This document shows, piece by piece, positions 3,005-20,807 of a DNA stretch of 33,539 nucleotides (the stretch's first letter is position 1; each line of letters begins with the position of its first letter). Location of the stretch: contig VFKO01000354.1 of assembly GCA_009885515.1 (NCBI GenBank), positions 1 through 33,539 of the forward strand, read 5' to 3'. Source of the DNA: Rhodobiaceae bacterium (GTDB taxonomy: Bacteria; Pseudomonadota; Alphaproteobacteria; Micropepsales; Micropepsaceae). A program made the translations under genes and the position numbers. A model generated the notes under the pieces. It worked only from the letters and a program-made list of their open reading frames with translations. It was not told where the DNA came from and did not search any database.

Positions 3005-3547
3005 ATGACTGACAGCACCGATGAATTGCGCCGAGGGATAACTGGTCTTTTACCAAGGTTACGTCGCTTTGGTGCGGTGTTGTCGGGAACTCAGGACGAA
3101 GGGGACGACTTAGTGCAAGCAGCGATTGAGCGGGCCCTATCCAAGCACGAGCAATGGCAGCCCGGAACACGTATAGATAGTTGGTTGTTCAAAATCATGC
3201 AGAACAGCTGGAAGGACGAAATTCGTAAGCGTAAAAACGTTCAAAAGAAGCTAATTTTGGATAGTGCGGGAACCGATCAGTCAGTCGATGGGCGGCGTGT
3301 CACGGAAACCATGTTGATGTTAACGAAGACACGCGAACAATTTGGAAGGTTGTCGGACGAGCACCGTGCAGTTTTGGCTCTGGTTGTGATCGATGGCCAT
3401 TCTTATCAGGAATCCGCTGATCAACTTGAGATTCCAATCGGAACCTTGATGAGCAGGCTGTATCGTGCGCGTGAGGCTTTACGGCATATGGTTGAACAAA
3501 CGAACAGTCACGAAAAAGCAGAAATCAACAAACGAATTGGTTCATGA
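3005..3547 (+). CDS. ECF (group 4) RNA polymerase sigma-70 family factor
   Basis: 180 aa. It has a region 2-like stretch, DDLVQAAIERAL...SWLFKIMQNSWKDEIRKRK. It also has a region 4 helix-turn-helix, LSDEHRAVLALVVIDGHSYQESADQLEIPIGTLMSRLYRAREAL. Confidence 0.9.
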   Translation: MTDSTDELRRGITGLLPRLRRFGAVLSGTQDEGDDLVQAAIERALSKHEQWQPGTRIDSWLFKIMQNSWKDEIRKRKNVQKKLILDSAGTDQSVDGRRVTETMLMLTKTREQFGRLSDEHRAVLALVVIDGHSYQESADQLEIPIGTLMSRLYRAREALRHMVEQTNSHEKAEINKRIGS

Positions 3548-4281
3548 GCACGATCACAGACGATACATTAATGGCCTATTGCGATGGCGAGCTCGACGAG
3601 CGAAACGCCGGTGTTGTGCGCGCGGCGCTGGAACAAGACGGCGGCTTGCGGGTGCGTTTGCAAAACATCCGCAACCTCGATGATGTGCTGCGCGCCTCCT
3701 TCCAGCCTCGTCTCGAGACGCCTGGACGGTTTGATCAACTGCTTGCCGGAAAACAGCCCGCACAAGTCATCCCGTTGCGCTCCAAATCAAACGCGTTGCG
3801 CAACTGGATTCCTACCGGCACCGGGATTGCGGCGGCGGTGTTAATCCTGTTTGCCGGCAACGCCTTCGCGCCTGGCCCAATGGCTTGGCTCGAACAAGTG
3901 GACGATGGCATCGCTTTGGCAGGTCCTGTCCTAGCCGCAATCGTTTCAACACCATCGGGAAAGCACGTCAAGCAAAACGGACTTAATATTTTGCCGGTTG
4001 TCAGTTTCGAGTCGGCTGATGGACGCCTGTGCCGCGAAGCGCAAGTCGATGACGCTGAACTTGCGGCCCGCATCGTGGCGTGTCGCGACAAAGATCACGA
4101 CGATTGGTGTATTGAAGCGTTTGCGCGAATGCCCGCACAACCTCGTACGAACGGGTACTATACCGCAGGAGTCCCCAAGGACCCTGTAATCGATGCCGCC
4201 TACGCAAGGCTCGGTATCAAAAATACTCTGACCGCCGATGCCGAAAAGCAGGCTATGGCGAGGAATTGGGTCTTGCAGTAG
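3544..4281 (+). CDS. membrane-spanning anti-sigma factor (cognate to the upstream ECF sigma)
   Basis: Its start overlaps the sigma gene stop as ATGA. The N-terminus is anti-sigma-domain-like (DDTLMAYCDGELDERNAGVV). There is one TM helix, WIPTGTGIAAAVLILFAGNAFA, followed by a periplasmic domain of about 140 aa. Confidence 0.75.
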   Translation: MSTITDDTLMAYCDGELDERNAGVVRAALEQDGGLRVRLQNIRNLDDVLRASFQPRLETPGRFDQLLAGKQPAQVIPLRSKSNALRNWIPTGTGIAAAVLILFAGNAFAPGPMAWLEQVDDGIALAGPVLAAIVSTPSGKHVKQNGLNILPVVSFESADGRLCREAQVDDAELAARIVACRDKDHDDWCIEAFARMPAQPRTNGYYTAGVPKDPVIDAAYARLGIKNTLTADAEKQAMARNWVLQ

Positions 4282-5102: not shown

Positions 5103-6323
5103 GTGCCCAACTACCTCTATGAAGCGGCCGATTCCAATGGCATCATTACGCGCGGCACCCTTGAGGCGCCGACGCGCAGCATCGCTGTTGAGCGCATCAT
5201 CGGGCTCGGTCGCACGCCTGTCCGGGTTGTTGAGCACGCAGGCACCCCGCTCAAGCTTTCAAGTGGCTCGCAGCCGCTGTGGCCACAATTCAATTTGGCA
5301 AATGACCGCCTCACACTGCTTCAGGAATTCAGCATTCTTCTGCGGGCAGGCCTCAGCGTCGAGCGCTCACTGGTCGCCATGCTTGCGTTGACCAACAAAA
5401 CCCGGATCAAAGCATCAATCCAGAATGTCCTCGAGGGCTTGAGGGCTGGCGAACCACTTTCCACAGCCATGCGCCGGGCTGGACTTCTGTTTCCGGATGC
5501 GCTGCGCAAACTCATTGCTGCGGGTGAAGCCAGCGGACGCTTACCCGAAGTCATGACGCGTTTGGCTACAGCGCAAGCCCGTAACAAAGAACTCACAGAC
5601 AAAATTGCCTCAGCCATGATCTACCCGGCGTTGCTGCTGGTGGTCATGCTTGCAGTCCTGATCATGATCTTCACCGTGGTCTTGCCCCGGCTAGAGCCGC
5701 TGTTCGAGCAAAGTGGCGCGGCCTTACCTTGGCCCGCAGCTTTGTTGCTGGGTATTTCTCACTTCCTCGACGCGTATGGGATATTGTTTGCCGTCGCAGT
5801 CATCGGTGCACTTGCAGCACTGCTTTACGCGCTCCGCCAACCGGCGATGCAAATCACGCTGGACAAGCGCGCCCTCTCCAGCCGCTTTCTTTTGAAGATT
5901 CCACAAGCGTACCAGGCGGCACAAATATGCCGGAATTTGGCAATGCTGCTTGATGGCGGCATGCCACTCAATCGCGCATTGGAAACGGCGGAGGGGGCGG
6001 TGACCAACAGCTACATGCGTCAAAGCTTGACCTCGGTTATTGACCGCGTAAAACACGGCCGCTCCCTCAAACTTTCGCTGGAGGACGCAAATGTCTTTCC
6101 TCGGGTGACACTGGAGTTCGTTGGTGTCGGTGAAGAAACCGGTCGGCTTGGACCGATGCTCAACGAGGCCGCCGACGTGCTGGATCGCGACGTTCAAGTA
6201 AAACTCGACCGGCTGTCGGCCCTCCTCTTGCCAATCGTAACGATTTTCCTCGGCATTATTGTGGCTGGCATTATGAGCGGCGTCGTCAGCGGCATCCTGG
6301 CCGCCAATGACTTGGCACTCTAG
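5103..6323 (+). CDS. gspF: type II secretion system F-family inner-membrane platform protein
   Basis: 406 aa with a GTG start. The N-terminus PNYLYEAADSNGIITRGTLEA is typical of GspF/PilC. It shows two repeated cytoplasmic T2SSF-like domains and three TM segments. Confidence 0.9.
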   Translation: MPNYLYEAADSNGIITRGTLEAPTRSIAVERIIGLGRTPVRVVEHAGTPLKLSSGSQPLWPQFNLANDRLTLLQEFSILLRAGLSVERSLVAMLALTNKTRIKASIQNVLEGLRAGEPLSTAMRRAGLLFPDALRKLIAAGEASGRLPEVMTRLATAQARNKELTDKIASAMIYPALLLVVMLAVLIMIFTVVLPRLEPLFEQSGAALPWPAALLLGISHFLDAYGILFAVAVIGALAALLYALRQPAMQITLDKRALSSRFLLKIPQAYQAAQICRNLAMLLDGGMPLNRALETAEGAVTNSYMRQSLTSVIDRVKHGRSLKLSLEDANVFPRVTLEFVGVGEETGRLGPMLNEAADVLDRDVQVKLDRLSALLLPIVTIFLGIIVAGIMSGVVSGILAANDLAL

Positions 6324-6325
6324 CC

Positions 6326-6766
6326 ATGAACCCTATCCCTTCGCGCACAGCCGGTTATTCGATGCTGGAGCTATTGGTGGTACTTGCCATCATGTCCCTC
6401 CTCGTGGTGGTCGCGATCCCGGCAGCAAGTGGCGCCTTGCAACGCCTGTCACTGTCGGGCGATGCGCGCCTGGTCGCTTCGAATTTGCGCAGCTTGCGCG
6501 AACAGGCGGCAGACCAGCAATCCGAAATCATCATCACAGCCCCCCCTGGCCGCGCCGGTGTACTTAGTGTTTCGAATGGCAGCGAAATTCTTCTGGCTTG
6601 GGGGACCACAGCGCAAATTCTGTCGCGCCATGATCGTAGTCAAAGCCTGAGGTTGAGCTGGGATGGCAGTGTCTCAGGGTCGGTCATGCTAACCCGCGGC
6701 GGGTCTACCATCCGCATCTCTGCTGATCGCATGACAGGTAGACTCATCTTCGAAGATACACCATGA
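6326..6766 (+). CDS. gspH: minor pseudopilin, GspH-like
   Basis: Prepilin leader and cleavage motif RTAG|YSMLELLVVLAIMSLL with Glu at +5. The size is 146 aa and it sits directly after gspF. Confidence 0.6.
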   Translation: MNPIPSRTAGYSMLELLVVLAIMSLLVVVAIPAASGALQRLSLSGDARLVASNLRSLREQAADQQSEIIITAPPGRAGVLSVSNGSEILLAWGTTAQILSRHDRSQSLRLSWDGSVSGSVMLTRGGSTIRISADRMTGRLIFEDTP

Positions 6767-7155
6767 GCGGCGAGCGTGGATTTACACTGATAGAGGCGTT
6801 GATTGCATTTGCGATCTTGGCCGTCACGCTTGTTTCACTTTATGAGGCCATGGGAACCGGCCTGCGCAGCTTTGGCGCTGCCTCCCGCGTCGAAACCGCG
6901 GTGATGATCGCTCGCTCTCAGTTGGACCGGATCGTTGCCCTCCAGCGCCTGCCGCAACCCCGGCAAGGCCCAAGTGCGGGTTCGGACTATGAGTGGAAAA
7001 TCGAGATCCTGCCGGCACCCGCGCATCCGGAATCAACAACGCTTTTTCAACCCGCGTTGATCCGCTTGTGGGTCACCTGGCCTGGCAACGCTGGGCCGCA
7101 AAAAATCTCAATTGATCGCCTGGTTTTCGTTCGCAAGCAGGAAAGCCAGCGATGA
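6763..7155 (+). CDS. gspI: minor pseudopilin, GspI-like
   Basis: ATGA overlap with the upstream gene. Prepilin motif ERG|FTLIEALIAFAILAV. 130 aa. Confidence 0.65.
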   Translation: MSGERGFTLIEALIAFAILAVTLVSLYEAMGTGLRSFGAASRVETAVMIARSQLDRIVALQRLPQPRQGPSAGSDYEWKIEILPAPAHPESTTLFQPALIRLWVTWPGNAGPQKISIDRLVFVRKQESQR

Positions 7156-7799
7156 AAAGGCATAACGAATCCGGGTATTCGCTTGTTGAGCTTCTGGTCG
7201 TGCTGGCGTTGTTTGGGCTCATAGCAATCGCCATGACCGGCGGCATACGTTTTGGCGCCCGCGCCTGGGAAAAAAGCGGCGCTCAAGTTGACGCCATCGA
7301 ACGGATCGAGGGCGCACAGAATATGCTGCGCACTCTGCTGCAGCGCGTTGTGCCACGCGACCTCAACCCCGAAAATCCTGCCGACCCCGATGTGTTTCAG
7401 GCGTCGCGGCACCGCATGACCTTCACCGCCCTGTCGCCATCGGCTATTGAAGCCAATGGTTTGGCCCGTTTTGTGCTGGAGGTCACCGAGGCATCAGGCA
7501 AAAAACAATTGAACCTGTCCTGGACCGGCATCAATGGAAACAGCGGGCGCCAGAGCCAAAGCTTGCTCGTTGATGCCAACGACATTTCATTTTCATTCGC
7601 CACCCTGGACCAAACAGGTGTCTTCGTCTGGCGCGACGATTGGATCGAACAGTCTGGCGCACCGGCGCTTGTCATTGTACGCGCAAAGTTTCCCTCAGGA
7701 TCGGCCATCCAGTGGCCCGAACTTGTCATCCGCCCGCGCATTTCCCGCGATCCCTCTTGTGTATACGACCCGGTGTCGTTCAGCTGCCGCCATGCGTAA
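7152..7799 (+). CDS. gspJ: minor pseudopilin, GspJ-like
   Basis: ATGA overlap with the upstream gene. Prepilin motif ESG|YSLVELLVVLALFGLIA. 215 aa. Confidence 0.65.
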   Translation: MKRHNESGYSLVELLVVLALFGLIAIAMTGGIRFGARAWEKSGAQVDAIERIEGAQNMLRTLLQRVVPRDLNPENPADPDVFQASRHRMTFTALSPSAIEANGLARFVLEVTEASGKKQLNLSWTGINGNSGRQSQSLLVDANDISFSFATLDQTGVFVWRDDWIEQSGAPALVIVRAKFPSGSAIQWPELVIRPRISRDPSCVYDPVSFSCRHA

Positions 7800-8700
7800 C
7801 ATTTTAGCCAACCCCTTGAATGCAGGTGAACGTGGAATCGCACTGATTGCGGTACTGGGATTTCTTGCCACGATGTCTCTCCTGGCAATCGGTGTTGTCA
7901 GCGCCGCACGAACCACTGTTACTAACGCCTCGCGCCATCTTGTCCGCGCCCAGGCACAAGCCGCAATCGAGAGCGGGATCGATTTTGCCGCCAATCAATT
8001 GGCCCAAGCGAGAGGCACCGCTCCAGCGCTGCTTTCACAACCTGAAACTTTGGAAATCGGTGGGTTTAGAGTTCAGGTTTCGGTTCGCCCTGAACGGGCG
8101 AAAGTCGATCTGAATTTTGCCGATGCTGATTTGTTGGCAACCCTCTTTCGAGCAGGCGGGGCAAGCCATGATGACGCGCAGGCGCTTGCTGCTTCAGTCG
8201 AAGATTGGCGCGACGGCGATGATCTGTTGCATCTTAAGGGCGCCGAGTTCAGGCAGTACAAAGAGCAAGGCTTGGACTATGGTCCGGCAAACGGATTTTT
8301 TGTCAGCGTCGACGAGCTACGGCTGGTTCTGGGAATGACCGGGCAAATTTACGCGTGTGTGCGTCCTCAACTCACAATATTGACCCAGTCACCCGGCATC
8401 GAACTTGAAATGGCCGCTCCGATGATCAGGCGCGCACTTGGTCTGGAAGAACGATCAGAAGCAAACGGCGCTGCCGGGGCCAGCGTTATTGCCAGCCAAC
8501 TCATCACACCTGGTCAAGTTTTCGAGATTACGGCACGCCTTGAAGATTCGGTCAGGCAGGTCAAGCGGTCGGAGCGGGTGATGATCAGGATTACCGGAGA
8601 TCCGAATGATCCATTTTGGAGTCTGAATATCGAACCCGCAATTCCCTTGGAAGCGGCAGCGCGCCGCCATTGCCCCGCCAAAAGTCCCTCTTTTCCCTAA
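7792..8700 (+). CDS. gspK: minor pseudopilin, GspK-like
   Basis: I start it at ATG 7792 (MRNILANPLNAGERG|IALIAVLGFLATMSLLAIGVV, no Glu+5, as in GspK). This overlaps the gspJ stop by 8 nt. It carries GspK-like segments ERAKVDLNFADADLL and SVEDWRDGDD. The longer ORF from 7534 overlaps gspJ out of frame. Confidence 0.65.
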   Translation: MRNILANPLNAGERGIALIAVLGFLATMSLLAIGVVSAARTTVTNASRHLVRAQAQAAIESGIDFAANQLAQARGTAPALLSQPETLEIGGFRVQVSVRPERAKVDLNFADADLLATLFRAGGASHDDAQALAASVEDWRDGDDLLHLKGAEFRQYKEQGLDYGPANGFFVSVDELRLVLGMTGQIYACVRPQLTILTQSPGIELEMAAPMIRRALGLEERSEANGAAGASVIASQLITPGQVFEITARLEDSVRQVKRSERVMIRITGDPNDPFWSLNIEPAIPLEAAARRHCPAKSPSFP

Positions 8701-9458
8701 TGACAACCCTCATCAGCGACGCGCTCATTGCAGCCATCATCGCCCCCTTCATCGGCAGCTTTTTGAGCGTGCTGGTATTGCGGCTGCCAAAGGGCGAAGA
8801 CGTCATCGTCACGCGTTCGCGTTGCCGTAGTTGCGGCCACATCCTCGGTGCATGGGAACTCATCCCCATAGTCTCTTGGCTTGTTCAGGCCGGAAGGTGC
8901 CGCGCGTGTGGCAGCGCCGTCAGCCCAGTGTATCCGGGAATGGAAATTGCATCCATTGTCGTGGCGCTTTGGGCGGTTTCGACAGTCGATGCGGAAGTGC
9001 GTTGGATAACAGTGGCCCTGGGGTGGGTCTTGCTGGCTTTGGCAGTCATGGACGCGCGAGATTTTTTTCTGGCCGATGAGCTGACTTTGCCCTTGGTGCC
9101 GTTGGGTTTGGCTGTGTGTTGGCTGCTGTCCCCAGAGCAGATCTACCTTCATGTTTCTGGTGCCATTTTGGGACTGGCGAGCATGATCGCGTTAGCCTGG
9201 GGCTACAAAACAGTGAGAGGCCGCGACGGCTTGGGTTTGGGAGATGCCAAACTTTTTGCTGCAGCCGGCGCGTGGACAGGTTTAGAAGGGCTTGGCACAG
9301 TGCTGCTCTATGCGGTCTTGGTTAACCTTTTGATGTTGGCGGTCTCGCGTTCAAACGCTGGGGAACTCGGCGCCACCACGCCTGTTCCATTGGGCACGGG
9401 GCTTGCAGCTGGTATTTGGTTGACGTGGCTGTATGGCCCGCTTGTGCTGGCGTTTTGA
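8700..9458 (+). CDS. gspO: A24-family prepilin peptidase
   Basis: TAATG overlap with gspK. Zn-finger-like cysteines CRSCGH...CRACG. It has eight or so TM segments and the second catalytic Asp motif GLGDAKLFAAAGAWTG. Confidence 0.85.
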   Translation: MTTLISDALIAAIIAPFIGSFLSVLVLRLPKGEDVIVTRSRCRSCGHILGAWELIPIVSWLVQAGRCRACGSAVSPVYPGMEIASIVVALWAVSTVDAEVRWITVALGWVLLALAVMDARDFFLADELTLPLVPLGLAVCWLLSPEQIYLHVSGAILGLASMIALAWGYKTVRGRDGLGLGDAKLFAAAGAWTGLEGLGTVLLYAVLVNLLMLAVSRSNAGELGATTPVPLGTGLAAGIWLTWLYGPLVLAF

Positions 9459-9466
9459 AAGAGACA

Positions 9467-11188
9467 ATGGGCAAAGAAAGTGTGGCGCAATTGATGGCCG
9501 GAAGCTCTCGGGAAGATCGCTTCATCGATCACCTTGTGCGCGCGGGCAAACTCGACATTGAGGGCGCTACGCGGGCCCGCCGTGTTGTTGAGCACAGCCA
9601 TGTCAGTTTGACCAAGGTCTTGCTGGAGCTCGGTCTGGTTCCCGAACGCGAGCTCATCGCCGAGTTCGAAACTGGTCTGCGAATTCCCCTGGCAACGGCA
9701 GAAGAGTTTCCGTTGGAACCTGTTCTGGCCGATGCCGTGTCCGAGAGGTTTCTCAAAGAACACCACACAATTATTCTGGCGGCCGAAGGAGAGAGCGTCA
9801 CAGTTGCGACGTCCGATCCGCTGGATCCGTTCACGACGGAGGCTATAGCACTCGCCACCAGCAAGCGCGTCATCGTCAAGGCCGCAACCTCGTCGGACAT
9901 TGAACAAGCCCTGCGCAGAATATACGCCAGCTCCGAAGCCCAGGCACTCACCCCAATGGGTGCGGGCGGTGCAACGGAAGTATCCGAAGCCGATCTCGAG
10001 CGCCTGCGTGAAAGCGCCAGCGTGGCGCCTGTCATTCGCTTTGTCAACACGCTGATTTCCAGAGCTGTAGAAGCCGGCGCTTCAGACATTCACATAGAAC
10101 CGTTCGAACGCCGCCTGCGCATCCGGACACGCATCGACGGCGTTTTGAAAGAAGAAGAGCCCGCGGCAATCGAACTTGCGCCAGCCGTCGTCTCTCGCTT
10201 GAAAATCATGAGCGGGCTCAACATTGCCGAGCGCCGCTTGCCGCAAGACGGCGCGGTGAAACTGGCCGTGCGCGGCAAGGAAATAGACCTTCGCATCGCC
10301 ACCGCCCCCGTCGCGTACGGCGAATGCGCTGCCATACGCATTCTTGACAAATCATCGGTGCCCTTGGATTTCACTACGCTCGGCTTTGATGCAATTGCGC
10401 AAGACAACCTCGCGGCGCTCCTGGCGCGGCCCAACGGCATCGTGCTGGTCACCGGGCCGACAGGCAGCGGCAAGACCACCACGCTCTACGCGGCATTGAC
10501 GCGCCTCAACACGGTTGAGCGCAAAGTTCTGTCTGTCGAAGATCCGGTTGAATACAAAATTTCCGGCGTAAATCAGGTTCAAGTAAAGCCCGAAATTGGT
10601 CTGACATTCGCCAACGTCTTGAGATCGTTTTTGCGCCACGATCCTGACGTGATTTTGGTCGGTGAAATTCGTGACCCCGAAACCGCGCGCATCGCTGTCC
10701 AGGCATCGCTGACGGGGCATTTGGTTTTGTCGACTGTTCACACCAACAGTGCCGCCGCCGCGATTACCCGCCTTCTCGATATGAACGTCGAGGACTATTT
10801 GCTATCCTCGACCATTGCCGGAATTTTATCACAGCGTTTGGTTCGCGCGCTGTGCCAGCAATGCAAGGCGCCGGTCGAGATGCGGGCGGAATGGGCACAG
10901 GAAATGTTAAAAGTTGGCCTTGTTCCAACAGGAAAGCCAATTTTTCAAGCGCAAGGCTGCCCCGCCTGCAATGGCACTGGCTACCGAGGCCGCACCGTCA
11001 TTTCGGAATTGCTTGTGCCCGACGAGCGCCTGCGTCGCATGATTGTCGCGCGCGCAGGGGCGTCGCAACTCCATAGCGCGGCGGTAGAGCAGGGGATGGA
11101 AACACTGCGCCGCTGCGGCCTGCGAAAAGTACTGGACGGCACGACCTCAATCGAGGAAATTTCACGCGTCGCTCAGGAAGAGGAGTGA
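9467..11188 (+). CDS. gspE: GspE/PilB-family secretion ATPase with a T2SSE_N (MshEN-like) N-terminal domain
   Basis: Walker A GPTGSGKTTT, Walker B/Asp box DPDVILVGEIRD, His box LVLSTVHTN, and the tetracysteine CQQC...CPAC. The N-terminal 150 aa (FIDHLVRAGKLDIEG...LTKVLLELGLVPERELIAEFE) resembles the helical T2SSE_N repeat. ATG 9467 is chosen because it avoids overlapping gspO. Confidence 0.9.
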   Translation: MGKESVAQLMAGSSREDRFIDHLVRAGKLDIEGATRARRVVEHSHVSLTKVLLELGLVPERELIAEFETGLRIPLATAEEFPLEPVLADAVSERFLKEHHTIILAAEGESVTVATSDPLDPFTTEAIALATSKRVIVKAATSSDIEQALRRIYASSEAQALTPMGAGGATEVSEADLERLRESASVAPVIRFVNTLISRAVEAGASDIHIEPFERRLRIRTRIDGVLKEEEPAAIELAPAVVSRLKIMSGLNIAERRLPQDGAVKLAVRGKEIDLRIATAPVAYGECAAIRILDKSSVPLDFTTLGFDAIAQDNLAALLARPNGIVLVTGPTGSGKTTTLYAALTRLNTVERKVLSVEDPVEYKISGVNQVQVKPEIGLTFANVLRSFLRHDPDVILVGEIRDPETARIAVQASLTGHLVLSTVHTNSAAAAITRLLDMNVEDYLLSSTIAGILSQRLVRALCQQCKAPVEMRAEWAQEMLKVGLVPTGKPIFQAQGCPACNGTGYRGRTVISELLVPDERLRRMIVARAGASQLHSAAVEQGMETLRRCGLRKVLDGTTSIEEISRVAQEEE

Positions 11189-11191
11189 GCC

Positions 11192-11632
11192 ATGAACACC
11201 ATCACCAAAACGCAAAAGCGCCTGCGCCGCCAAGGCGGATATTCATTGCTGGAACTACTGGTCGTGCTCGCGATCCTGGGGCTGATCATTGCCATCGCAG
11301 CGCCGCGGGTCATCGGCTACTTCGAGGCTTCCAAGGCGAAGGCGGCAAAGATACAAATCGCCAACATTTCGACGGCCCTTGATCTCTACAAGCTCTCCAA
11401 CAACGCCTTCCCGACGGAACAGCAAGGCCTAAAGGCGCTCGTAGAAAAGCCCGACAGCGTCGCGACGTGGGACGGTCCATATCTCACGCGGGCCGACGGC
11501 ATCAACGATCCTTGGGGAAGGAATTACAATTACAAGGTTCCCGGTATTCATGGCGCCTTTGACGTAAGCTCGCTGGGTGCAGACGGAAAAGAAGGTGGAG
11601 TCGGCGAAAACCAGGATTTGGGTTCCTGGTGA
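11192..11632 (+). CDS. gspG: major pseudopilin GspG
   Basis: GAGGAG Shine-Dalgarno sequence. Prepilin motif RQGG|YSLLELLVVLAILGLIIAIAAPRV. It has the T2SS G signature DPWGRNYNYK and the Ca-loop-like segment SLGADGKEGGVGENQD. Confidence 0.9.
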   Translation: MNTITKTQKRLRRQGGYSLLELLVVLAILGLIIAIAAPRVIGYFEASKAKAAKIQIANISTALDLYKLSNNAFPTEQQGLKALVEKPDSVATWDGPYLTRADGINDPWGRNYNYKVPGIHGAFDVSSLGADGKEGGVGENQDLGSW

Positions 11633-12175: not shown

Positions 12176-12849
12176 GGCTTTCGAAAATCCATAGCGAGAA
12201 CATACATTTCAGCGGAGTCAGCGCGGCTGGCGGGTGGTTTGATGTGAACGACTTTTCCAAACTGGCGTTTCAGCGTTTCCAACAATGACCGCTCCGTGCC
12301 GCCGCGCAGGACCTTGCACAAAAACGTACCTCGCGGCTCAAGTACATCGATCGCAAACTCCAGCGCCGCCTCACACAAGGCCATGACCCGCATGTGATCG
12401 GTTTCCCTGTGTCCGGTTGCGGGTGACGCCATGTCGGACACGACGATATTTACCGGACCATTGAGGTTCTGCACTATGATGGCTGGCGCATCAGCTTGCA
12501 TGAAATCAAGCACGAGTAACACTGCGCCTTCAATCGGTTCAATGGCTTGAATATCAATCCCCAACACCGTGTTCGCACCAACTCTTTCTACCAGGATTTG
12601 CGTCCAGCCGCCGGGAGCCGACCCAAGATCCACCGCGCGAGCCCCGCGCTTCAAGAACCGGTGCTTGTCGTCCATCTCTTTGAGTTTGTAGGCGGCTCGC
12701 GAGCGATAACCCTGCGCTTTTGCCGCGCGAACATACGGATCGTTGATCTGGCGTTCGAGCCAGGTTTGCGAGGATTTCGTTCGTTGCTTTGCAGTGCGCA
12801 GGCGCACTTTCAGGGCGCGGGACGCCTGGGGTTTGTCGTCCCGGTTCAT
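12172..12849 (-). CDS. rlmE: 23S rRNA (uridine-2'-O)-methyltransferase RlmE/FtsJ
   Basis: Contains WLERQINDPYV, YRSRAAYKL, the SAM motif AVDLGSAPGGW, and VVSDMASPATGHRETDH. ATG 12849 overlaps the ppx stop as ATGA. The ORF extension to 13011 overlaps ppx and is not credible. Confidence 0.9.
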   Translation of the reverse strand: MNRDDKPQASRALKVRLRTAKQRTKSSQTWLERQINDPYVRAAKAQGYRSRAAYKLKEMDDKHRFLKRGARAVDLGSAPGGWTQILVERVGANTVLGIDIQAIEPIEGAVLLVLDFMQADAPAIIVQNLNGPVNIVVSDMASPATGHRETDHMRVMALCEAALEFAIDVLEPRGTFLCKVLRGGTERSLLETLKRQFGKVVHIKPPASRADSAEMYVLAMDFRKP

Positions 12850-14045
12850 GTTGCTGGCCCGCGATGTCGTGAGCGCCGTTTGCGCCGCTTGCCACCGCGG
12901 CGGCGGCGCTTTGCCTTGTGCTCTTTGTGGTCGCCAGCACCTTCCATAAGCGCCAGGAGCATGCCTTCCCTCAAGCCGCGATCCGCAACCCTTAACCGGG
13001 GAGGAGTCCACAACCGGAAGATTGACTCAAATATCGCAAGCCCAGGAATCACCAATTCTGCGCGATCGGCACCAATGCAAGAATGCGCCGCACGTTGGGC
13101 AAGCGACATGGATTTGAGTTGTTCGATGACCTTCAGAATATCGTCGCGCGCGATCCATGTTCCATCGACTTTGGATCGTTCATAACGTTCAAGCCCCAGA
13201 AATAATCCGGCAATTGTCGTCACGGTGCCCGAAGTCCCCAGCATGTGGAAGGACCCTGCAGGATGCTCGCCGGGCGGGACGGGATCTGGCAGGCCCATCA
13301 GGTGATGGGTAATCTCCGCCACCATTTCGCCATAGACACCAGGCTCATCAAGGCGCCCGGAAAACTTCTCTCCTAATGTAACGACACCCAACGGAATGGA
13401 GCCCCACCGCAAAATTCGCGGCCGGCGTTTTGGCTCGCGCAGATCAAGCCAGATCAGCTCGGTCGAGCCGCCACCGATATCGAAGACCAACGCTCCGTTG
13501 TCGGTGCGGTCAAGCAGCGGGGTAACACCGCGTGCCGCCAGCCGCGCCTCTTCCGCAGGCGGGATGATATCGAAGTGCAGCCCCGTTTCCTTGGCGACCC
13601 GCCGGATAAATTCAGGGCCATTCCTCGCCATCCGGCAGGCTTGCGTAGCAATCGCGCGCGCGCTCGTCACGCCGCGCTTTCGCATTTTGGCGGCGCAAAT
13701 TCGAATGGCATCGATCGCCCGGGTGATTGCCGCTTCGGAGAGTTCACCCGATTGCGCAAGTCCCTCGCCCAGCCTGACGGTTCGCGAAAATGAATCCAGC
13801 ACCCGGAAGCCTGAGGCTTCGGGCTTTGCTATCAACAACCGGCAATTATTTGTGCCGAGATCGAGCGCCGCATAAATGTGCCCCGGCCGTTCTTTGGGCC
13901 GCGAAACCTGAATTTCTCCCGCACCCGCGGAAGCATTGCCCGGTGGGCCATTCTGCTGCGCCCCACGCGAGACTATCGTCACGGGGCAATTCTCACTTGC
14001 TTTGCCTGGTTCGTTCCCGCCGCCCTTGTCAGGCGACTGCCGCAC
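12846..14045 (-). CDS. Ppx/GppA family phosphatase (exopolyphosphatase-like)
   Basis: ASKHA-fold motifs IYAALDLGTNNCRLLIAK, VFDIGGGSTEL and GTSGTVTT, with a basic C-terminal tail KAKRRRRGGKRRKRRSR. The GTG start at 14045 is the longest option and the exact start is uncertain. Confidence 0.85.
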   Translation of the reverse strand: MRQSPDKGGGNEPGKASENCPVTIVSRGAQQNGPPGNASAGAGEIQVSRPKERPGHIYAALDLGTNNCRLLIAKPEASGFRVLDSFSRTVRLGEGLAQSGELSEAAITRAIDAIRICAAKMRKRGVTSARAIATQACRMARNGPEFIRRVAKETGLHFDIIPPAEEARLAARGVTPLLDRTDNGALVFDIGGGSTELIWLDLREPKRRPRILRWGSIPLGVVTLGEKFSGRLDEPGVYGEMVAEITHHLMGLPDPVPPGEHPAGSFHMLGTSGTVTTIAGLFLGLERYERSKVDGTWIARDDILKVIEQLKSMSLAQRAAHSCIGADRAELVIPGLAIFESIFRLWTPPRLRVADRGLREGMLLALMEGAGDHKEHKAKRRRRGGKRRKRRSRHRGPAT

Positions 14046-14125
14046 ACAAGCGCTGATGTCAGTTCCCCCTGATCCTAGCCTCCGCAGCCCGAAAAAGCCA
14101 CCTCGGGCCCAATCCAGCAGGGCGA

Positions 14126-14290
14126 GTGTCCTGTTTCACCCCAAAAACCCCGTACTTCAGCCCCGAATTTCAGGACAAACAGGACACGAGACGCTGTCTC
14201 AGAACACTGTCCGCGCTGTCCTGTTCAGCCCGTAAGCGCTTGAGTGCGCTCGCGTTTTTCACCGCCATCAGGACAAACATCACGAGACAC
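14126..14290. repeat. two tandem units of about 90-98 bp with conserved ends (TGTCCTGTT ... CAGGACAAACA..CACGAGAC), holding a cluster of five GTCCTG/CAGGAC hexamers
   Basis: Unit ends: TGTCCTGTT at 14127 and 14217, and CAGGACAAACA at 14171 and 14269. A perfect 11-bp inverted repeat, GTGTCCTGTTT 14126-14136 / AAACAGGACAC 14177-14187, has a 40-nt spacer. The cluster lies 80-245 bp upstream of the ppx start. Confidence 0.7.
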
Positions 14291-14351
14291 CCATTCCGCA
14301 TCAATTCCAGCAGCATCGAAGACGCAATTCCGGGCACTCACCCGCAATAAG

Positions 14352-14448
14352 TTTTTCGCGCGGGCTCACGAGGCGGACCCCAACCCCCAAGGCCGCGCCA
14401 GTTTTTTTCACGATGTCAAGCACTAACAGGAACATATAACGAACAGTG
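14352..14448. repeat. direct repeat copy A (core 14352-14423)
   Basis: The 72-nt core matches 17317-17387 with 7 substitutions and a 1-nt gap, aligned by hand. Patchy similarity extends to 14448. Confidence 0.8.
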
Positions 14449-14478
14449 CGGCCCATGTCAACCCCCCTCCCTGGGAGC

Positions 14479-14511
14479 GCCGGCATCCTGCCGGCCCTTT
14501 CTTGTTCTTCC
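14479..14511 (+). terminator. orphan terminator-like hairpin (GCCGGCA-tcc-TGCCGGC followed by CCTTTCTTGTTCTTCC)
   Basis: A perfect 7-bp GC-rich stem with a 3-nt loop, followed by a 16-nt tract with 9 T. No plus-strand gene lies upstream for about 2.8 kb. It could end a small RNA or be a REP-like element. Confidence 0.25.
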
Positions 14512-14718
14512 TCTCCCCGTCACAAAGAGCAGGCTGGAAGCCGGCGTTCCCACGAAAGGCTCCCCGCAGCCGTACAGGGCCGCGCGCGAATGGCGCGAAA
14601 GTTTGGGAAAAGTTTGGGCTGGCGCCGAGCGTCGGAGCGTGCGCTCAGAATTCGCGGCGGAGCGCGAAGTTCCGGGCGGTTGACGAAGCGTGCTGGTAAG
14701 AGTCCCTGGTATTGTCGC

Positions 14719-14804
14719 CGAAATCGTGTCATATCATTCTAACGCGACAGGACCTTGCACCGGTAAGAGGCACCGGTCAATTAGGTATACCGTCCCCTTA
14801 ATTC
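14719..14804 (+). promoter_or_regulatory. left arm of the 86-nt inverted repeat; upstream/leader element of the FAD oxidase gene
   Basis: 72/86 identical to the reverse complement of 16838-16923. It ends 15 nt before ATG 14820. It contains the hairpins ACCGGT-N7-ACCGGT (14759-14777) and AATTAGG-N11-CTTAATT (14779-14803). Confidence 0.7.
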
Positions 14805-14819
14805 CAATAGGATCAGGCC

Positions 14820-16238
14820 ATGAAAGACGATGCACTGTCCGAGCTCAGATCCGCCCTTCGGGGGGAAATCATCACCCGCGCCGACGCGGCAGCGTTTGCC
14901 GCCGCGCGCTTCCGGGGATGGAATCGCGATCTGAACACGCGAACCAATCCACTGGGTTTTGTCATCGCCTCAGGTGTCCGGGATATCGTGACGACCGTAA
15001 ACTACTGTCGGTCGCACAACATTCCTGTCGCGGTGCGCGGAAAGGGTGCCCACTCACCCTACGGAATGGCCAATGACGCAATCGTGGTCGACCTCATGAG
15101 GATGACGGCGGTCCGCGTCGACCCTGACGAGAAGCTTGTTTTTGTACAGGCGGGCGCCGATGGAGGGGACGTCGATCACGAAACGGCCCTCCATAATCTC
15201 GTGTGCCTGACCGGCTCGGTCTCGCATACCGGATTTGCGGGTGTCGCGCTTGGCGGCGGCATTGGACACCTGAGCCGATGGCTGGGCGCGGTGGTTGATA
15301 GCATCCTCGGATACGAGATGGTCACCGCAACGGGAGAAGTTGTCCGCGTGGACGCAGCGAAGGATCCGGAACTTTTCTGGGGCATGCGCGGGAACGGCGC
15401 CAGCTTTGGAATCGTCACCGAATTTGTCCTGAAGCTGCGCGATATGCCGAACAACGGACTTATCCGTGGCGCTCCAATATTGTGGGGAGCGGACAAAGCA
15501 ACGGACGTGATGAGATCCTGGATGGACCGCATCGGCCGTCCCGGGCGCAAGAACACAGAAATATATCAGTTTGCGTTCATGCACTCGCCCGACGGCGATC
15601 CGGTCTGTGGAATAGTGCCTCTGATCGTTGGTGAGACCGAACGCACGGCGAAGGCCACGTGTGACGAGCTGGCGGCCTACGCGGGCGGGGCAGTAGTACG
15701 GCAGGACACTCAACTGCCCTATACGGCGCTTCAGGCGGCGCTGGACGACCGCTTCCCCTACGACGTGAACTACTGGGAAAAGGGAGTGTTCATCGACTGG
15801 GACCCGCGTGACCCAAACGCGGTGAACAGCATCGTGGACGCGGCGGTGAAGCAGTGGAGTGAAAGGCCCGACTTCGCCACGAAACTGTCGACGGTCCTGC
15901 TCTTTATGGAGGTCAACGGCGCGGTGGCAACGGGAGATACAGCCTCCACGTCGTTTGCCGCTCGGGGCGCGCGCCTCTGGTGCACGGCCATTATCAGTTG
16001 GCCGGATGACGATGCCTCAAAGCGCGCGGCCAGCAGGAAATGGTGTGGGTCCCTGGTCGAGAAGCTGAGTCCATTTCATGTGACCACCTATCTGAACAAC
16101 GCCATGCCGGAGAGCGAAGCTGAAATGCTCAGCGTCTTCCCTCGGGACACTATGAAGCGTCTGCGTGCTCTGAAGGAAAAGCACGATCCCAATAATTTGT
16201 TCAAAATGGGCGCGTGGCAGTATGAGGCCAACCTATAG
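14820..16238 (+). CDS. FAD-linked oxidase (PCMH-type FAD_binding_4 with a BBE-like C-terminus)
   Basis: 472 aa. RGKGAHSPYG resembles the R-x-G-G-H-S covalent-FAD region. The FAD-binding core includes GGGIGHLSRWLG. The C-terminal motif LRALKEKHDPNNLFKMGAW is berberine-bridge-like. Confidence 0.85.
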   Translation: MKDDALSELRSALRGEIITRADAAAFAAARFRGWNRDLNTRTNPLGFVIASGVRDIVTTVNYCRSHNIPVAVRGKGAHSPYGMANDAIVVDLMRMTAVRVDPDEKLVFVQAGADGGDVDHETALHNLVCLTGSVSHTGFAGVALGGGIGHLSRWLGAVVDSILGYEMVTATGEVVRVDAAKDPELFWGMRGNGASFGIVTEFVLKLRDMPNNGLIRGAPILWGADKATDVMRSWMDRIGRPGRKNTEIYQFAFMHSPDGDPVCGIVPLIVGETERTAKATCDELAAYAGGAVVRQDTQLPYTALQAALDDRFPYDVNYWEKGVFIDWDPRDPNAVNSIVDAAVKQWSERPDFATKLSTVLLFMEVNGAVATGDTASTSFAARGARLWCTAIISWPDDDASKRAASRKWCGSLVEKLSPFHVTTYLNNAMPESEAEMLSVFPRDTMKRLRALKEKHDPNNLFKMGAWQYEANL

Positions 16239-16354
16239 TCGGATCGTGAAGACGATCAGACCCGCCGGATCGTTTCAAGGGCGGCTTCCGACTTGGCGCG
16301 TTTTTCCAACGCCATTGATCTTCCCGCCGCCCCGGCTGATGCGCCAATCGCGTT

Positions 16355-16798
16355 CTAGCCCACCGTCAGCTTGAGGTATTTGATCGTTGAGGCCGGTAGC
16401 ACGGCTTTGTTTTTCGCGAACCACTTCTCACCGCCGGGTGAAGAGAACGTTTGCCTGTATGCGGGTAACACCCAGTTCTCTAATAAGTCGTTGTTGATTG
16501 CGTCGTTCTCCGCCGCGTAGATGACATTCTGCAAATTGTGCCATTGGCGTGACATGAGCAGATCGAACACAATTTGCTCGCCCTCGAAAAGTTCAGCCGA
16601 CCCCTGAAGTCCTTTGATCCAGGTTTCTGCGTCGGAGCCCATGTATACGGGATCGAAGGCGCGATCACGAGCAGCCGACACTTCCAGTGCGGTGTTCAGT
16701 CTGGTTTGCCGGTTGCCTTCGCGCAGTTGCATCGCAACGAAAAGAAGCGAAACGACAATGGCAGTTGCCGGCACTGCGTCGCTGATTGTGCTGATCAA
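16355..16798 (-). CDS. hypothetical N-terminally anchored small protein (possibly disrupted; see finding)
   Basis: 147-aa ORF from TTG 16798 with one N-terminal TM helix, AVPATAIVVSLLFVAM. An SD-preceded ATG at 16810 lies in the same frame but is separated from the ORF by a TAA at 16799-16801. I recognise no family. Confidence 0.5.
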   Translation of the reverse strand: MISTISDAVPATAIVVSLLFVAMQLREGNRQTRLNTALEVSAARDRAFDPVYMGSDAETWIKGLQGSAELFEGEQIVFDLLMSRQWHNLQNVIYAAENDAINNDLLENWVLPAYRQTFSSPGGEKWFAKNKAVLPASTIKYLKLTVG

Positions 16799-16837
16799 TT
16801 AAAGGGACATGACGCTAGCCTTCCGGTTGAGTTCTGA

Positions 16838-16923
16838 GAATTAAGGGGACGCAATACTTAATTGACATGCGCCTCCAGCAGGTGCAAGCTCCTGTCGCGC
16901 CAGAATGATTTGACACGATTTCG
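16838..16923 (-). promoter_or_regulatory. right arm of the 86-nt inverted repeat; upstream/leader element of the 147-aa gene
   Basis: It is the reverse complement of the left arm (72/86). It ends 27 nt before ATG 16810. The equivalent hairpins, on plus-strand coordinates, are ACATGC-N7-GCAGGT at 16865-16883 and AATTAAG-N10-CTTAATT at 16839-16862. Confidence 0.7.
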
Positions 16924-17141
16924 CTGATCATGCCAATGTCTCTAGCCAACTCGTGCCGCCAACCGCTCGGACCTTCGAAAATACGGCGGCAAGCTATTGG
17001 ACTGCACCCTTCCCGTGAGACACGGAAATTGGGAGGCAGGTTGGCCGTCGCGGGATTGCTGCGGCTTTGTGTAAAGACGTAAAAGCAATGATCCGGCGAA
17101 GCAGAAGCGGGCGGTGGTGGTGCGTCAAACGCGAATGCCCA

Positions 17142-17324
17142 TCAAACGCGAATGATCGTGTCGCTGTAACGGGCAACCTGATCGTCATGGGTCACGAGCC
17201 GCAGGGGCTCGCAAATGGCCTGAGCAACCAGCAATCGGTCAAACGGGTCGAAATGATGCACCGGCAGGTCCTCGACGGGAATATGGTGACAGGTTACCTC
17301 TCGCCGCATTCCATCCTTTTTCAC
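17142..17324 (-). pseudogene. 5'-truncated PIN-domain (VapC-like) toxin fragment
   Basis: The 60-aa ORF ends ...LPVHHFDPFDRLLVAQAICEPLRLVTHDDQVARY, which matches the C-terminal third of COG3744-type PIN toxins (HH.DPFDR.L.AQA). About 70 N-terminal residues and any antitoxin gene are absent. An in-frame stop lies at 17352-17354. Confidence 0.6.
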
Positions 17325-17453
17325 GCGGGCTAACGGGGCGCACCCCGACCCTCAAGGCCGCGCCAGCTTTTTCACGATGTCAAGCACGAGAACATGTAGG
17401 GAGAAAAATGGCATTGCCGAGAGGGGTATTGTGCGGGGACATAACGAAAAGTG
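17317..17453. repeat. direct repeat copy B (core 17317-17387)
   Basis: Matches 14352-14423. It starts inside the 5' end of the PIN fragment. Relative to copy A it carries an insertion of about 45 nt between GAACAT and ATAACGAA. Confidence 0.8.
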
Positions 17454-17540
17454 TTTCGTTGTGGGTCACCTTGCCGTATTTGGCGGTTAGGCCGAAATTG
17501 ATGAGTTTCACGTAGTCTGTACCAGTTCCGGGGGAAAGCC

Positions 17541-20500
17541 ATGAGCTGGAAAATTGTGGCAGGATGGATGCTAGCAGCTGTTTGGGCTGCAGAGTTCGTC
17601 ACAATGGTATCGCTCGACTCCTTTGGAGTGGTCGTTGCAGATGCGCAACTCGAAGCCCTTGTCGACTCTGTTGCAGTTGGGGCGTTTTCGCTTTGCGCAT
17701 ATTTGGCTTTGCTGATGATCGACCGGCGCAGCATGAAGCTCATCCGTGCTGGTGATTGGTACAATGGGCTTGTGATCGTATTGACGGTCATTGGTTTTGA
17801 AAGTGTGTTTCATCCACTTTCAGAAAACGTATCAACGCTTTTCACGAATGAAGTAAGTGTGGAATTGGTAAATTCCGTCTTGCTGGCGATTGCTGTAGCC
17901 TGTGTATGCGCATGGATACACGCTATCGATCAGCGTGTTACGGAACTCGTTCCAAGCAGAAAAGTATTTTTGAAGAAAGCCGGACCAGCGGTGCTCATTG
18001 GCGTGCTTGTCAGTGCCATATGCGTTTCCTCAGTGGCAGCATTGCGTGAAGTCAATCAGCGCATGTTTTCCCATGAAGTGGGTCTGGGGGCAGCGCTTGG
18101 CGATGCTGTTGCACATCAACGTGAAGCAAGTCATTCGGTCGGGCGTGCCGCGCTGATGTCCCTACAGACCGGCGGGGGCAGTCTGCCGTTCGTAAATGCA
18201 ATGGGCGCCGCGGGCGGGCGCGCATCAATTACACAAAATCTTGCTGCCGAGTATTTTCGTCGAAATGAAAGTGAACTGCAGAAGCTGGTTCGTCGGCCAA
18301 GTCTTGCATCCTTTGACAGGGCATGGGGGCAGGTGGTGGACTCCGCGCGAGTTTTTAGCACAGCTGGGGAAACTTCTAAGCGCGAAGCTGCCTTAGCATT
18401 GCAGTTTTCCATCGACGAGTTTGCATATAGCGCCAATGCTATGCTCAATTCGATCGCCATTCTTGAAAGTCGGCGCGCCGTTCACCACGGCTCTGTCATC
18501 GGGGAAATAGCAAACGGCGTCCTTGTCTTCCTGATGGCGGCGGGATTGCTGCTGCCATTGCTTCGCCTTACGGGTGCGCAAATGAGCAGGCTTGGCGCAT
18601 CGTTGAGCGACGCGCAACGCTTGAATGGAAATTTGGCGGCGTACAAACGTGCGCTGGACGAGCATGCTATTTTTTCCGTGACAGACCAGCGCGGCAAAAT
18701 TCTGCAAGCCAACGAGCATTTCCTGGCGATTTCGAAATACACGCACGAAGAAGTCATTTCTCAAAACCATCGAATCGTATCGTCCGGCATGCATGGGCCA
18801 GATTTCTTTGCAGGGATGTGGAAGACTATTTCGCGCGGCGATACCTGGCGTGGCGAGGTTTGTAACCGGGCGGTTGACGGTTCGCTCTATTGGGTTGATG
18901 TTTGCATCACGCCATTGATGGGAACGGATGGTACGCCGGAACAATATGTGTCGATCGGTTATGATATCACCGAACGCAAAGGCGCAGAGGAGCGATTTGA
19001 ACGTAAAATCAAATTGTCGCGTGCCATCGAAGCGATGCGCTCTGAGTTCATGGTGCATGACTCCGTTTATGCCACTTTGACGCCTGTACTGAATGAAATC
19101 AACGCTGTCATGGGTTCGAATGCCTCTCTTGTGGTGGAGTTGGCTCGAAACCGTGAAGGGTGCGCCTCGGCATTGATGCTCGGCCATAGCAAGAGCGAAA
19201 GAGCCGGCGATGATGCATTAACGGGCACACAACCTCGACTGACTAACCCGGAAGGACAGCACGAACTTATCGAAGAAGCGCTAAGCCTGGGTGAGATGTT
19301 TGGCGGTCTTGGCGCAAAGCAATTGGGCGCGGACGAGTTTACAGGGTTTCCCATTGCAGTGGGTTTCGATCCTGTGGGCTTATTGCTGGTCTCTGGTGAC
19401 ATTGATCGGGTGTTGTTCGACGATGAGATCACGATAACGGTGAATGCGCTCGCAGAAATAGTGTCCGCGCGCCGGGAATCTGACCGTCGGCGTGCGGACG
19501 AGGAGGGAACCAAGAAACTTGCCAAGCGCGATCCTTTGACCGGCTTGGGCAATCGACGCGATTTGGAGGAGGAATTTGAGTCTCGCACCGACCATCCGGA
19601 CGCGCAGTTTGGGTTGCTGCTGATCGACCTTGACCGGTTCAAACCTATCAACGACACGTTTGGTCATTTGGTGGGTGACACTGTTCTTCGAGTTGTGGCG
19701 GAGCGGCTCGTCGCGATGGCCAAAGGCGATTATACTGTGTCGCGCATCGGCGGTGACGAGTTTGCGATTCTCACTGAATCGCATGCGGTCTTGAATGAAC
19801 ATCAGGCGCTTGAACTGGCAAGGCGCGTAATTGAAGAATTATGTGCGCCAGTCCAATGCGGGCAATATGAGGTGTCGGTGGGTGCTTCGGTGGGCGTGGC
19901 TCTTTACCCTCGGCACGGTCACACCTTTCAAGAGATTTTCCATTGCGCCGATGCTGCAATGTATCGGGCCAAGGAGAACAGATCCGAAGCAAAGATGTTT
20001 GATGCTTCTATGGATGAAGGCATACGACACCGTGCGGAACTTGAAACTGACCTCAAGCGGGCGCTGGAGCAGGACGAAATCGTTCCCTATTTCCAACCGT
20101 TCGTCGATCTTTCGAGTGGCAAGGTTGTTGGTCATGAAGTGCTTGCACGCTGGACACATTCTGTTCGCGGTGACGTGGCACCGTCTGAATTCATAAAAAT
20201 TGCGGAGGAGGCGGGGCTCGTTGATCGCTTATTCTGGCAGATACTGAGCCGTGCCTGCAAAATGCATGTATCGGGAAGGCACAAAACCACTTTGTCGGTG
20301 AATTTGTCACCCACGCAAATCAATAATCCGCTTTTTGCAAGGCATTTGATTGAACAGATCGAACAACTTGGATTTCCTGCCAATCTTCTCGAAGTAGAAA
20401 TTACGGAAACGTCGATGATCGGCGACCTCAACCGGGCGCGGCCGCTGTTGTTGCTGCTGAAGAGTTGCGGCATTCAGATCGCGCTTGATGATTTTGGCAC

Positions 20501-20807
20501 GGGTTATTCATCACTTGCACTTCTCAGGAGTCTGCCGATCTCGAAGCTCAAGATTGACCATTCGTTCACTGCAGATCTTGAAAGTCAAGACGCAACGCGC
20601 GGTACGATCATCGACGCGATTTTGGGCATTGCCAAGGCGATGCATCTCAAAGTCACGGCGGAAGGGATCGAGACTCCTGAGGTCGCAGATTACCTGCGTG
20701 CGCAAGGTTGCCACTATGGCCAGGGCTATTTATTCTCGAAGGGCGTGCCTCAGATTCTGACTGAGGTAAGTGAGGGCGGGCCGACTGCGTGGCGCAATTC
20801 AGCTTAG
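17541..20807 (+). CDS. membrane sensor with PAS, GGDEF and EAL domains (c-di-GMP cyclase/phosphodiesterase)
   Basis: 1088 aa. The N-terminal 340 aa or so hold several TM helices and an extracytoplasmic helical region. The PAS domain reads IFSVTDQRGKILQANEHFLAISKYTHEEV...YDITERK. The GGDEF domain reads DPLTGLGNRR...IDLDRFKPINDTFGH...RIGGDEFAI. The EAL domain reads HEVLARW, SVNLSP, EVEITE, DDFGTGYSS, KIDHSF, AEGIET and GQGYLFSKG. Confidence 0.9.
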   Translation: MSWKIVAGWMLAAVWAAEFVTMVSLDSFGVVVADAQLEALVDSVAVGAFSLCAYLALLMIDRRSMKLIRAGDWYNGLVIVLTVIGFESVFHPLSENVSTLFTNEVSVELVNSVLLAIAVACVCAWIHAIDQRVTELVPSRKVFLKKAGPAVLIGVLVSAICVSSVAALREVNQRMFSHEVGLGAALGDAVAHQREASHSVGRAALMSLQTGGGSLPFVNAMGAAGGRASITQNLAAEYFRRNESELQKLVRRPSLASFDRAWGQVVDSARVFSTAGETSKREAALALQFSIDEFAYSANAMLNSIAILESRRAVHHGSVIGEIANGVLVFLMAAGLLLPLLRLTGAQMSRLGASLSDAQRLNGNLAAYKRALDEHAIFSVTDQRGKILQANEHFLAISKYTHEEVISQNHRIVSSGMHGPDFFAGMWKTISRGDTWRGEVCNRAVDGSLYWVDVCITPLMGTDGTPEQYVSIGYDITERKGAEERFERKIKLSRAIEAMRSEFMVHDSVYATLTPVLNEINAVMGSNASLVVELARNREGCASALMLGHSKSERAGDDALTGTQPRLTNPEGQHELIEEALSLGEMFGGLGAKQLGADEFTGFPIAVGFDPVGLLLVSGDIDRVLFDDEITITVNALAEIVSARRESDRRRADEEGTKKLAKRDPLTGLGNRRDLEEEFESRTDHPDAQFGLLLIDLDRFKPINDTFGHLVGDTVLRVVAERLVAMAKGDYTVSRIGGDEFAILTESHAVLNEHQALELARRVIEELCAPVQCGQYEVSVGASVGVALYPRHGHTFQEIFHCADAAMYRAKENRSEAKMFDASMDEGIRHRAELETDLKRALEQDEIVPYFQPFVDLSSGKVVGHEVLARWTHSVRGDVAPSEFIKIAEEAGLVDRLFWQILSRACKMHVSGRHKTTLSVNLSPTQINNPLFARHLIEQIEQLGFPANLLEVEITETSMIGDLNRARPLLLLLKSCGIQIALDDFGTGYSSLALLRSLPISKLKIDHSFTADLESQDATRGTIIDAILGIAKAMHLKVTAEGIETPEVADYLRAQGCHYGQGYLFSKGVPQILTEVSEGGPTAWRNSA

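Follow-up and report, generated by a model that had tools for sequence, protein, structure and literature searches.

Inverted copies of one upstream region precede both genes of a convergent oxidase and small membrane-protein pair and may keep the two under common control

The window analysed here, a stretch of 33,539 nucleotides from a Rhodobiaceae bacterium (contig VFKO01000354.1), carries two convergent genes, each of which begins behind a copy of the same non-coding sequence; these two copies, which we call the arms, are the subject of this report. The gene on the left (14820-16238, + strand) encodes a 472-residue oxidase of the VAO/PCMH/BBE-like superfamily with a FAD_binding_4 domain (Pfam, E 1.8e-24), and the gene on the right (16355-16798, - strand, read from a TTG codon) encodes a small membrane-anchored protein of 147 residues that falls in no Pfam or NCBIfam family. 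The two are separated by a spacer of 116 nt, in which no relic of a second oxidase or small-gene copy is seen on reading the sequence. This arrangement, proposed by an earlier note that worked from the letters alone, is borne out by the open reading frame (ORF) listing and the domain search. A repeat search, self-BLAST and block-by-block identities place the left arm, which is the upstream region of the oxidase gene, at 14665-14804 (+ strand) and the right arm, its inverted copy ahead of the small-protein gene, at 16838-16977 (- strand). Aligned without gaps over 140 nt, 14665-14804 and the reverse complement of 16838-16977 are 77% identical (32 differences; self-blastn E 1.3e-25), with a longest identical run of 14 nt, and the inverted repeat is far beyond chance. 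The earlier note had described its core, 14719-14804 against the reverse complement of 16838-16923, as gapless with 72 of 86 positions identical, and so it is. Its further statement that a weaker similarity continues outward is correct in kind, but the reach was put at about 15 nt, and it is in fact 54 nt, to 14665 and 16977.

The inner boundaries of the repeat are informative. Nucleotide similarity between the arms ceases at 14804 and 16838, and the inner ends precede an ATG by 15 nt on the left and 27 nt on the right, so that both arms have the same orientation and a similar spacing relative to their genes, as had been noted earlier. Between the left arm and its ATG lies the oxidase's own ribosome-binding region, ATAGGATCAGGCC (14805-14819, + strand; upstream listings and local alignment), which stands outside the repeat. 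In local alignments scored against shuffles it resembles the leaders of orthologues in three of six loci (P 0.002-0.008 in L008, L011 and L043), and in the same shuffle test the leaders of the other three (L009, L010 and L041) gave no significant match. On the other side, comparison with the locus of the closest homologue, L006, identifies 16799-16837 (- strand) as the ribosome-binding region native to the small gene (GGAAGG), after which come an ancestral ATG at 16810 and the triplets TCC CTT TAA; homology to L006 spans 16811 to about 16833, near the inner edge of the right arm at 16838. Each arm thus stops at the native ribosome-binding region of its gene, which is to say that two unlike gene starts, each of them native, are joined to the same upstream sequence. 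Both arms end in the same 12-mer, GTCCCYTTAATT, and a third copy of this word (16797-16808, - strand) lies exactly over the in-frame TAA of the small gene; three matches in the window compare with 0.11 expected, and none of 100 shuffles reached three.

The start of the small gene requires correction. The earlier note had assigned a Shine-Dalgarno sequence and the ATG at 16810 to the 147-residue ORF, but that ATG opens a three-codon frame (ATG TCC CTT TAA), and the 147-residue ORF itself starts at the adjoining TTG, 16798. In the closest homologue (P0002, in L006; 68% identical) the corresponding ATG is the true start and no stop follows it. Judging from the sequence, translation in our window probably re-initiates at TAATTG. 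The ratio of nonsynonymous to synonymous substitution rates (dN/dS) against L006 is 0.12, at a synonymous divergence (dS) of about 2, which indicates that the small gene is under purifying selection and has not decayed into a pseudogene.

Divergence between the arms is distributed unevenly along their length. The outer 54 nt (14665-14718) are 67% identical and the inner 86 nt, the core (14719-14804), are 84% identical, a significant difference (Fisher P 0.024). Within the core, a first block of 43 nt (14719-14761) is 91% identical and a second of 27 nt (14778-14804) is 89% identical, and the 16 nt between them (14762-14777) are only 56% identical (Fisher P 0.003 for the variable stretch against the two blocks). 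The variable stretch coincides with hairpin 1 (HP1), the first of two stem-loops that the earlier note had drawn in both arms. A pair of conserved blocks on either side of an unconstrained spacer of some 16 nt fits a two-part promoter or operator read by a protein better than it fits a structured RNA, as far as a comparison of two copies can suggest. The population to which the genome belongs supplies a further view of this region: in a comparison of the window with five contigs of the same population, taken from other samples, over 14378-17800, the sole differences are at 14706, 16836 and 16855, all of them in or beside the arms and none in a coding sequence.

The two genes behind the arms are not a chance association. 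The earlier note had suggested that an oxidase and a small membrane protein might form a two-gene module, and members of the small-protein family indeed adjoin FAD/BBE-type oxidases elsewhere, across several phyla and two oxidase subfamilies; this is so in no fewer than eight loci besides the window, and in five of these the arrangement is operon-like. For example, in L010 and L011 (Gemmatimonadota), where the oxidase is 79% identical to that of the window, the small gene follows the oxidase immediately on the same strand, and in L010 only 12 nt separate the oxidase stop codon from the small gene's start. In L103, L105 and L107 the small gene likewise comes right after an oxidase on the same strand, here one of a different subfamily with about 25% identity; in L043, L044 and L067, which carry the window's own oxidase subfamily, the order is reversed, with the small gene ahead of the oxidase and on its strand. 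The window is the only convergent case of the pair, and no other conserved neighbour of the oxidase was found in 27 genome loci. Judged from gene order across these lineages, the oxidase and the small membrane protein are functionally linked. More distant members of the small-protein family (L106 and L109-L112) have no oxidase alongside, and in L106 (1313-6237), L109 and L110 such distant members occur as runs of tandem paralogues without an oxidase.

The closest solved relative of the oxidase in the PDB is EncM, with an end-to-end alignment (E 1.7e-41), and relatives 75-82% identical to it occur in many phyla. A profile search with the small protein returned about 150 unnamed relatives of about 160 residues. 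Its AlphaFold model, a confident one with a predicted local distance difference test (pLDDT) score of 88.9, is all-helical with an N-terminal helix of about 50 residues, and no fold in the PDB matched the model with E below 2. Among the oxidase genes, a set that we call group A (L008-L012, L041, L043 and L044) shows 91-98% DNA identity across genomes labelled Thermoanaerobaculia, Gemmatimonadota and Acidobacteriota. These genes share about 70 nt upstream, and homology is lost beyond about -70; the shared leader implies that the oxidase gene moves with a private leader of its own. Such near-identity between phyla may reflect either very recent transfer or mis-binned contigs.

Only two copies of the arm were found. 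This count holds for the sequences searched, that is the window, the related loci and the sequence collections, the rest of the host genome lying outside the search. Within the 33.5-kb window, self-BLAST and nhmmer at maximum sensitivity found no third copy; nhmmer at maximum sensitivity and blastn found no arm in 556 kb of related loci; and a covariance model with HP0, HP1 and HP2 matched only the two arms in 562 kb. An exact 21-mer from the first block, the one word scanned, does not occur in 596 Gb of species-representative genomes, a shorter exact arm word is absent from viral contigs, and blastn of the arm against plasmids gave no match. The earlier note had granted that its case would fall if the element proved to be a common dispersed repeat, and the absence of a third copy from the window, from about 560 kb of related loci and from the plasmid, viral and species-representative scans speaks against that possibility. 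Nor does the arm precede any of about 60 oxidase homologues or the small gene's only close homologue, and among 52 oxidase loci this window alone repeats the oxidase's upstream region beyond the gene. As these comparisons indicate, the arm is the conserved leader of neither gene family. At the same time, protein identity to the nearest oxidase is only 81% and L006 is at a dS of about 2, so the absence of the arm in relatives says little about its age. We considered its absence before L006 as a sign of recent insertion and dropped this idea, since at a synonymous divergence of about 2 non-coding DNA is unalignable in any case.

Overall, we believe that the arms represent a duplicated promoter or leader through which the two genes of a split pair remain commonly controlled, a reading that we consider probable, if not strongly so. 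The general course of events can be sketched. The oxidase and the small protein, which are encoded on the same strand in most relatives and often in an operon, are here a convergent pair. Each gene carries its own copy of the 140-nt region, joined to its native ribosome-binding region; RNA polymerase, together with some regulator that reads the first and second conserved blocks, would act on both genes; and with the same machinery engaged on both copies, co-expression would be kept. The 16-nt variable stretch, HP1, would act as a spacer on which no particular sequence is imposed. In this scheme the activity of the arms as promoter or operator is inferred, as are the co-regulation and the manner and direction of the copying. 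In this context, the shared cis-regulatory leader proposed in the earlier note survives in part: it is reasonable to describe the arms as an upstream control region that the two genes of a module share, given the orientation and spacing of the arms, the conservation of their inner parts and the recurrence of the gene pair, but the structured RNA that was offered as one form of it finds no support, and the arm is not a conserved leader.

Several observations weigh against the duplicated promoter. With two copies, the uneven divergence (P 0.02 and 0.003) could be chance or mutational heterogeneity, and the population variant at 16855, T to G, changes the conserved second block. A stop at the fourth codon of the ancestral frame makes expression of the small gene from the arm uncertain. 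A consensus scan found no sigma-70 site in 14000-17600, and a relaxed scan returned only weak candidates with awkward spacing, namely TTGCAC-N17-CAATTA and a -10-like (T/A)ATCAT at 14732-14737; searches by hand and by script for sigma-70, sigma-54 and extracytoplasmic function (ECF)-type promoter motifs likewise gave nothing convincing. Finally, the likeness of the arm to oxidase leaders of other phyla is marginal. We compared the 3' end of the arm, CGTCCCCTTAATTC, with the leader of the group A orthologues, GCGCCCCTTCAATTC, and take their likeness for no more than a hint: the similarity reached P 0.01-0.04 in two of six loci, and nhmmer found none. It therefore does not serve to tell which of the two arms is the original.

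A different view of the arms is that they are 5' untranslated regions in which HP1 and the second stem-loop, HP2, make up an RNA that acts like a riboswitch or binds a protein and governs both genes once transcription has begun. The hairpins pair exactly as the earlier note wrote them. In the right arm HP1 keeps five of six pairs, with two changed on both sides and one broken, and HP2 keeps all seven, with a single change from A-U to G-U that would be tolerated on the sense strand only; the GAGGC of the HP1 loop is conserved, and the weak -10-like hexamer mentioned above would put both hairpins in the transcript. The compensatory changes that had been claimed are therefore present, but a comparison of two sequences lends them no significance. 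When the differences are scattered at random, 3.4% of simulations yield two or more compensated pairs within a single stem that is retained (P 0.034), and when they keep their actual positions the share is 31% (P 0.31); in a pair-count control, shuffling attains the observed values in 110 of 500 trials. Fold energies are ordinary, with z-scores between +1.5 and -1.7 (-0.33 and -1.50 for the cores, 0.02 and -1.66 for the full arms, and up to +1.5 when the start region is included). The minimum-energy folds of the two arms differ; that of the right arm lacks HP1 as well as HP2, HP2 appears in neither, and the consensus fold of the two sequences recovers neither hairpin. No Rfam family is found in the window at gathering scores, and none on the arms (14000-17600) even at E up to 5, in agreement with the earlier note, which had not recognised the element as a known riboswitch. 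The covariance model finds nothing beyond the arms, and oxidase leaders in other lineages share no common fold. That HP1 should be the variable stretch between two conserved blocks is, moreover, what one expects of a spacer in a promoter or operator. We consider a regulatory RNA of this sort improbable. We also give little credence to a broader variant, in which the arms would be an undescribed cis-regulatory element, structured RNA or operator, dedicated to the oxidase/small-protein module and duplicated after the operon was split, with HP1 kept by compensation.

The arms might also be a functionless relic, either the decayed ends of an element of transposon or foldback type or what deletions have left of an inverted segmental duplication, with the module in a small decayed islet. 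The surroundings lend this idea some weight. A direct repeat of 72 nt, absent from the earlier note and found by repeat search and self-BLAST, brackets the 2.97-kb oxidase module, with its left copy at 14352-14423 and its right copy at 17317-17387 (both + strand); the copies are 89% identical, their last 20 nt are the same, their folding is unremarkable, and they may be the att-like ends of a decayed islet. The right copy starts where a remnant of vapC is cut off. This remnant (17142-17324, - strand; blastn and ORF listing), the C-terminal part of a VapC/PIN toxin gene without its N-terminal half and without an antitoxin, sits between the right arm and the right direct repeat and matches annotated plasmid VapC genes at 77-81% identity (77% over 128 nt, E 1e-16). 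The oxidase has been transferred between phyla, and in L099-L101 a remnant of its gene is found close to a fragment of a transposase; and all three population variants fall in or near the arms, as they would in weakly constrained DNA. Nonetheless, the likeness between the arms is highest at their inner, gene-proximal ends and fades outward, the opposite of transposon ends. The mirrored outer boundaries show no target-site duplication (at most 4 nt), the ORF listing and the domain search reveal no transposase or recombinase between the arms, there are no further copies in the sequences searched, such repeats are missing from 51 of 51 other oxidase loci, and the block pattern suggests constraint. 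We therefore regard the relic as unlikely, if worth keeping in view. The same inverted repeats around a segment have the geometry of an invertible element, one that would flip the 2-kb segment between them. A flip would restore the arrangement from which it started, with an arm still ahead of either gene, and would switch nothing; the arms, 77% identical, share no identical run beyond 14 nt, a length at which homologous recombination would be inefficient; the genes between and beside them include no recognised invertase; and all five population contigs have the same orientation. An inversion substrate is accordingly very hard to credit.

Certain named classes of element were examined separately. 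As terminal inverted repeats of a transposon or of a miniature inverted-repeat transposable element (MITE) the arms were rejected, having no sharp outer edge (84% identity in the inner part, 67% in the outer) and direct repeats of 4 nt or less. As integron attC sites they were rejected as well: RYYYAAC/GTTRRRY occurs in neither arm, with a single match in the ribosome-binding region of the small gene, outside the repeat; the earlier note had likewise not recognised an attC site. In L099-L101, on large contigs, positions 3006-3053 hold the remnant of the oxidase 3' end referred to above, 48 nt long and 87.5% identical; it lies a few hundred bases from an ORF that resembles, by eye, the C-terminus of an rve-type transposase. 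Around the module, the window carries a Ppx/GppA phosphatase gene on the left (12846-14045, - strand; ORF listing and domain search) and a gene for a PAS-GGDEF-EAL protein on the right (17541-20807, + strand), and no tRNA gene was found in the whole window. Farther off are an ECF-type sigma factor (3005-4281), whose best Pfam match is to the PhyR sigma2 domain and which adjoins an unannotated downstream ORF, and a cluster of type II secretion or pilin-like genes (5103-11632); no link from either of these to the arms was found.

If the duplicated promoter is the right reading, this locus would be a clean natural case in which co-regulation was kept after the break-up of an operon by copying the control region and not by restoring the gene order. 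The kind of event, duplication of a promoter or leader, is one that has already been described, and no new RNA element is demonstrated here; the case would thus be useful for studies of regulatory evolution, though it brings no new principle. The by-products may outweigh the repeat itself. One is the recurrent and uncharacterised pairing of an EncM/BBE-like oxidase with a small membrane protein for which there is neither a Pfam family nor a matching solved structure; another is the occurrence, in genomes assigned to different phyla, of oxidase genes that are 91-98% identical in DNA and have a leader of about 70 nt of their own.

The arms can be set beside several known systems. Like riboswitches and other leader RNAs, they stand directly before a coding sequence, may form hairpins and would place several genes behind one element; unlike them, they have no Rfam match, no thermodynamic signal, no significant covariation and no conservation before homologues. 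Correia elements, ERIC and REPIN are also short non-coding repeats, which can supply promoters and some of which form hairpins (PMC3575422), but these are multi-copy sequences with defined ends and target duplications, whereas the arms have two copies, fuzzy outer ends and no target duplication. With regard to its product, the oxidase of the window takes its place among the EncM-like and BBE-like flavin oxidases of the VAO/PCMH superfamily by virtue of its FAD_binding_4 domain and its alignment with EncM, and is set apart by its pairing with a small, helical, membrane-anchored protein, a pairing that has no named counterpart. Promoter reuse and putative mobile promoters, which are said to have been treated also by Matus-Garcia et al. 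in Nucleic Acids Research in 2012, offer a further comparison. Putative mobile promoters are defined as sequences of at least 50 nt and at least 80% identity that lie between -150 and -50 relative to unrelated genes of a single genome, and their families are mostly pairs, with a mean identity of 92% and no known insertion sequence or Rfam match (Nijveen, Matus-Garcia and van Passel 2012, PMC3575422). Promoter activity is implied by their name but is no part of the definition. In our window, 14719-14770 and its partner are 84.6% identical over 52 nt within these bounds, whether the start of the small gene is taken as the ATG at 16810 or the TTG at 16798, and the oxidase and the 147-residue protein are not paralogues (BLASTP best E 0.45). 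Thus the arms resemble putative mobile promoters in being closely similar non-coding DNA before two unrelated genes of one genome, with no match to a known insertion sequence or Rfam family (PMC3575422). With identities of 77-84% against a mean of 92%, they would be older or less constrained. The genes behind them, moreover, are adjacent, convergent and functional partners that form an operon elsewhere, and here the copy would not rewire an unrelated gene but preserve a co-regulation that the two genes already had.

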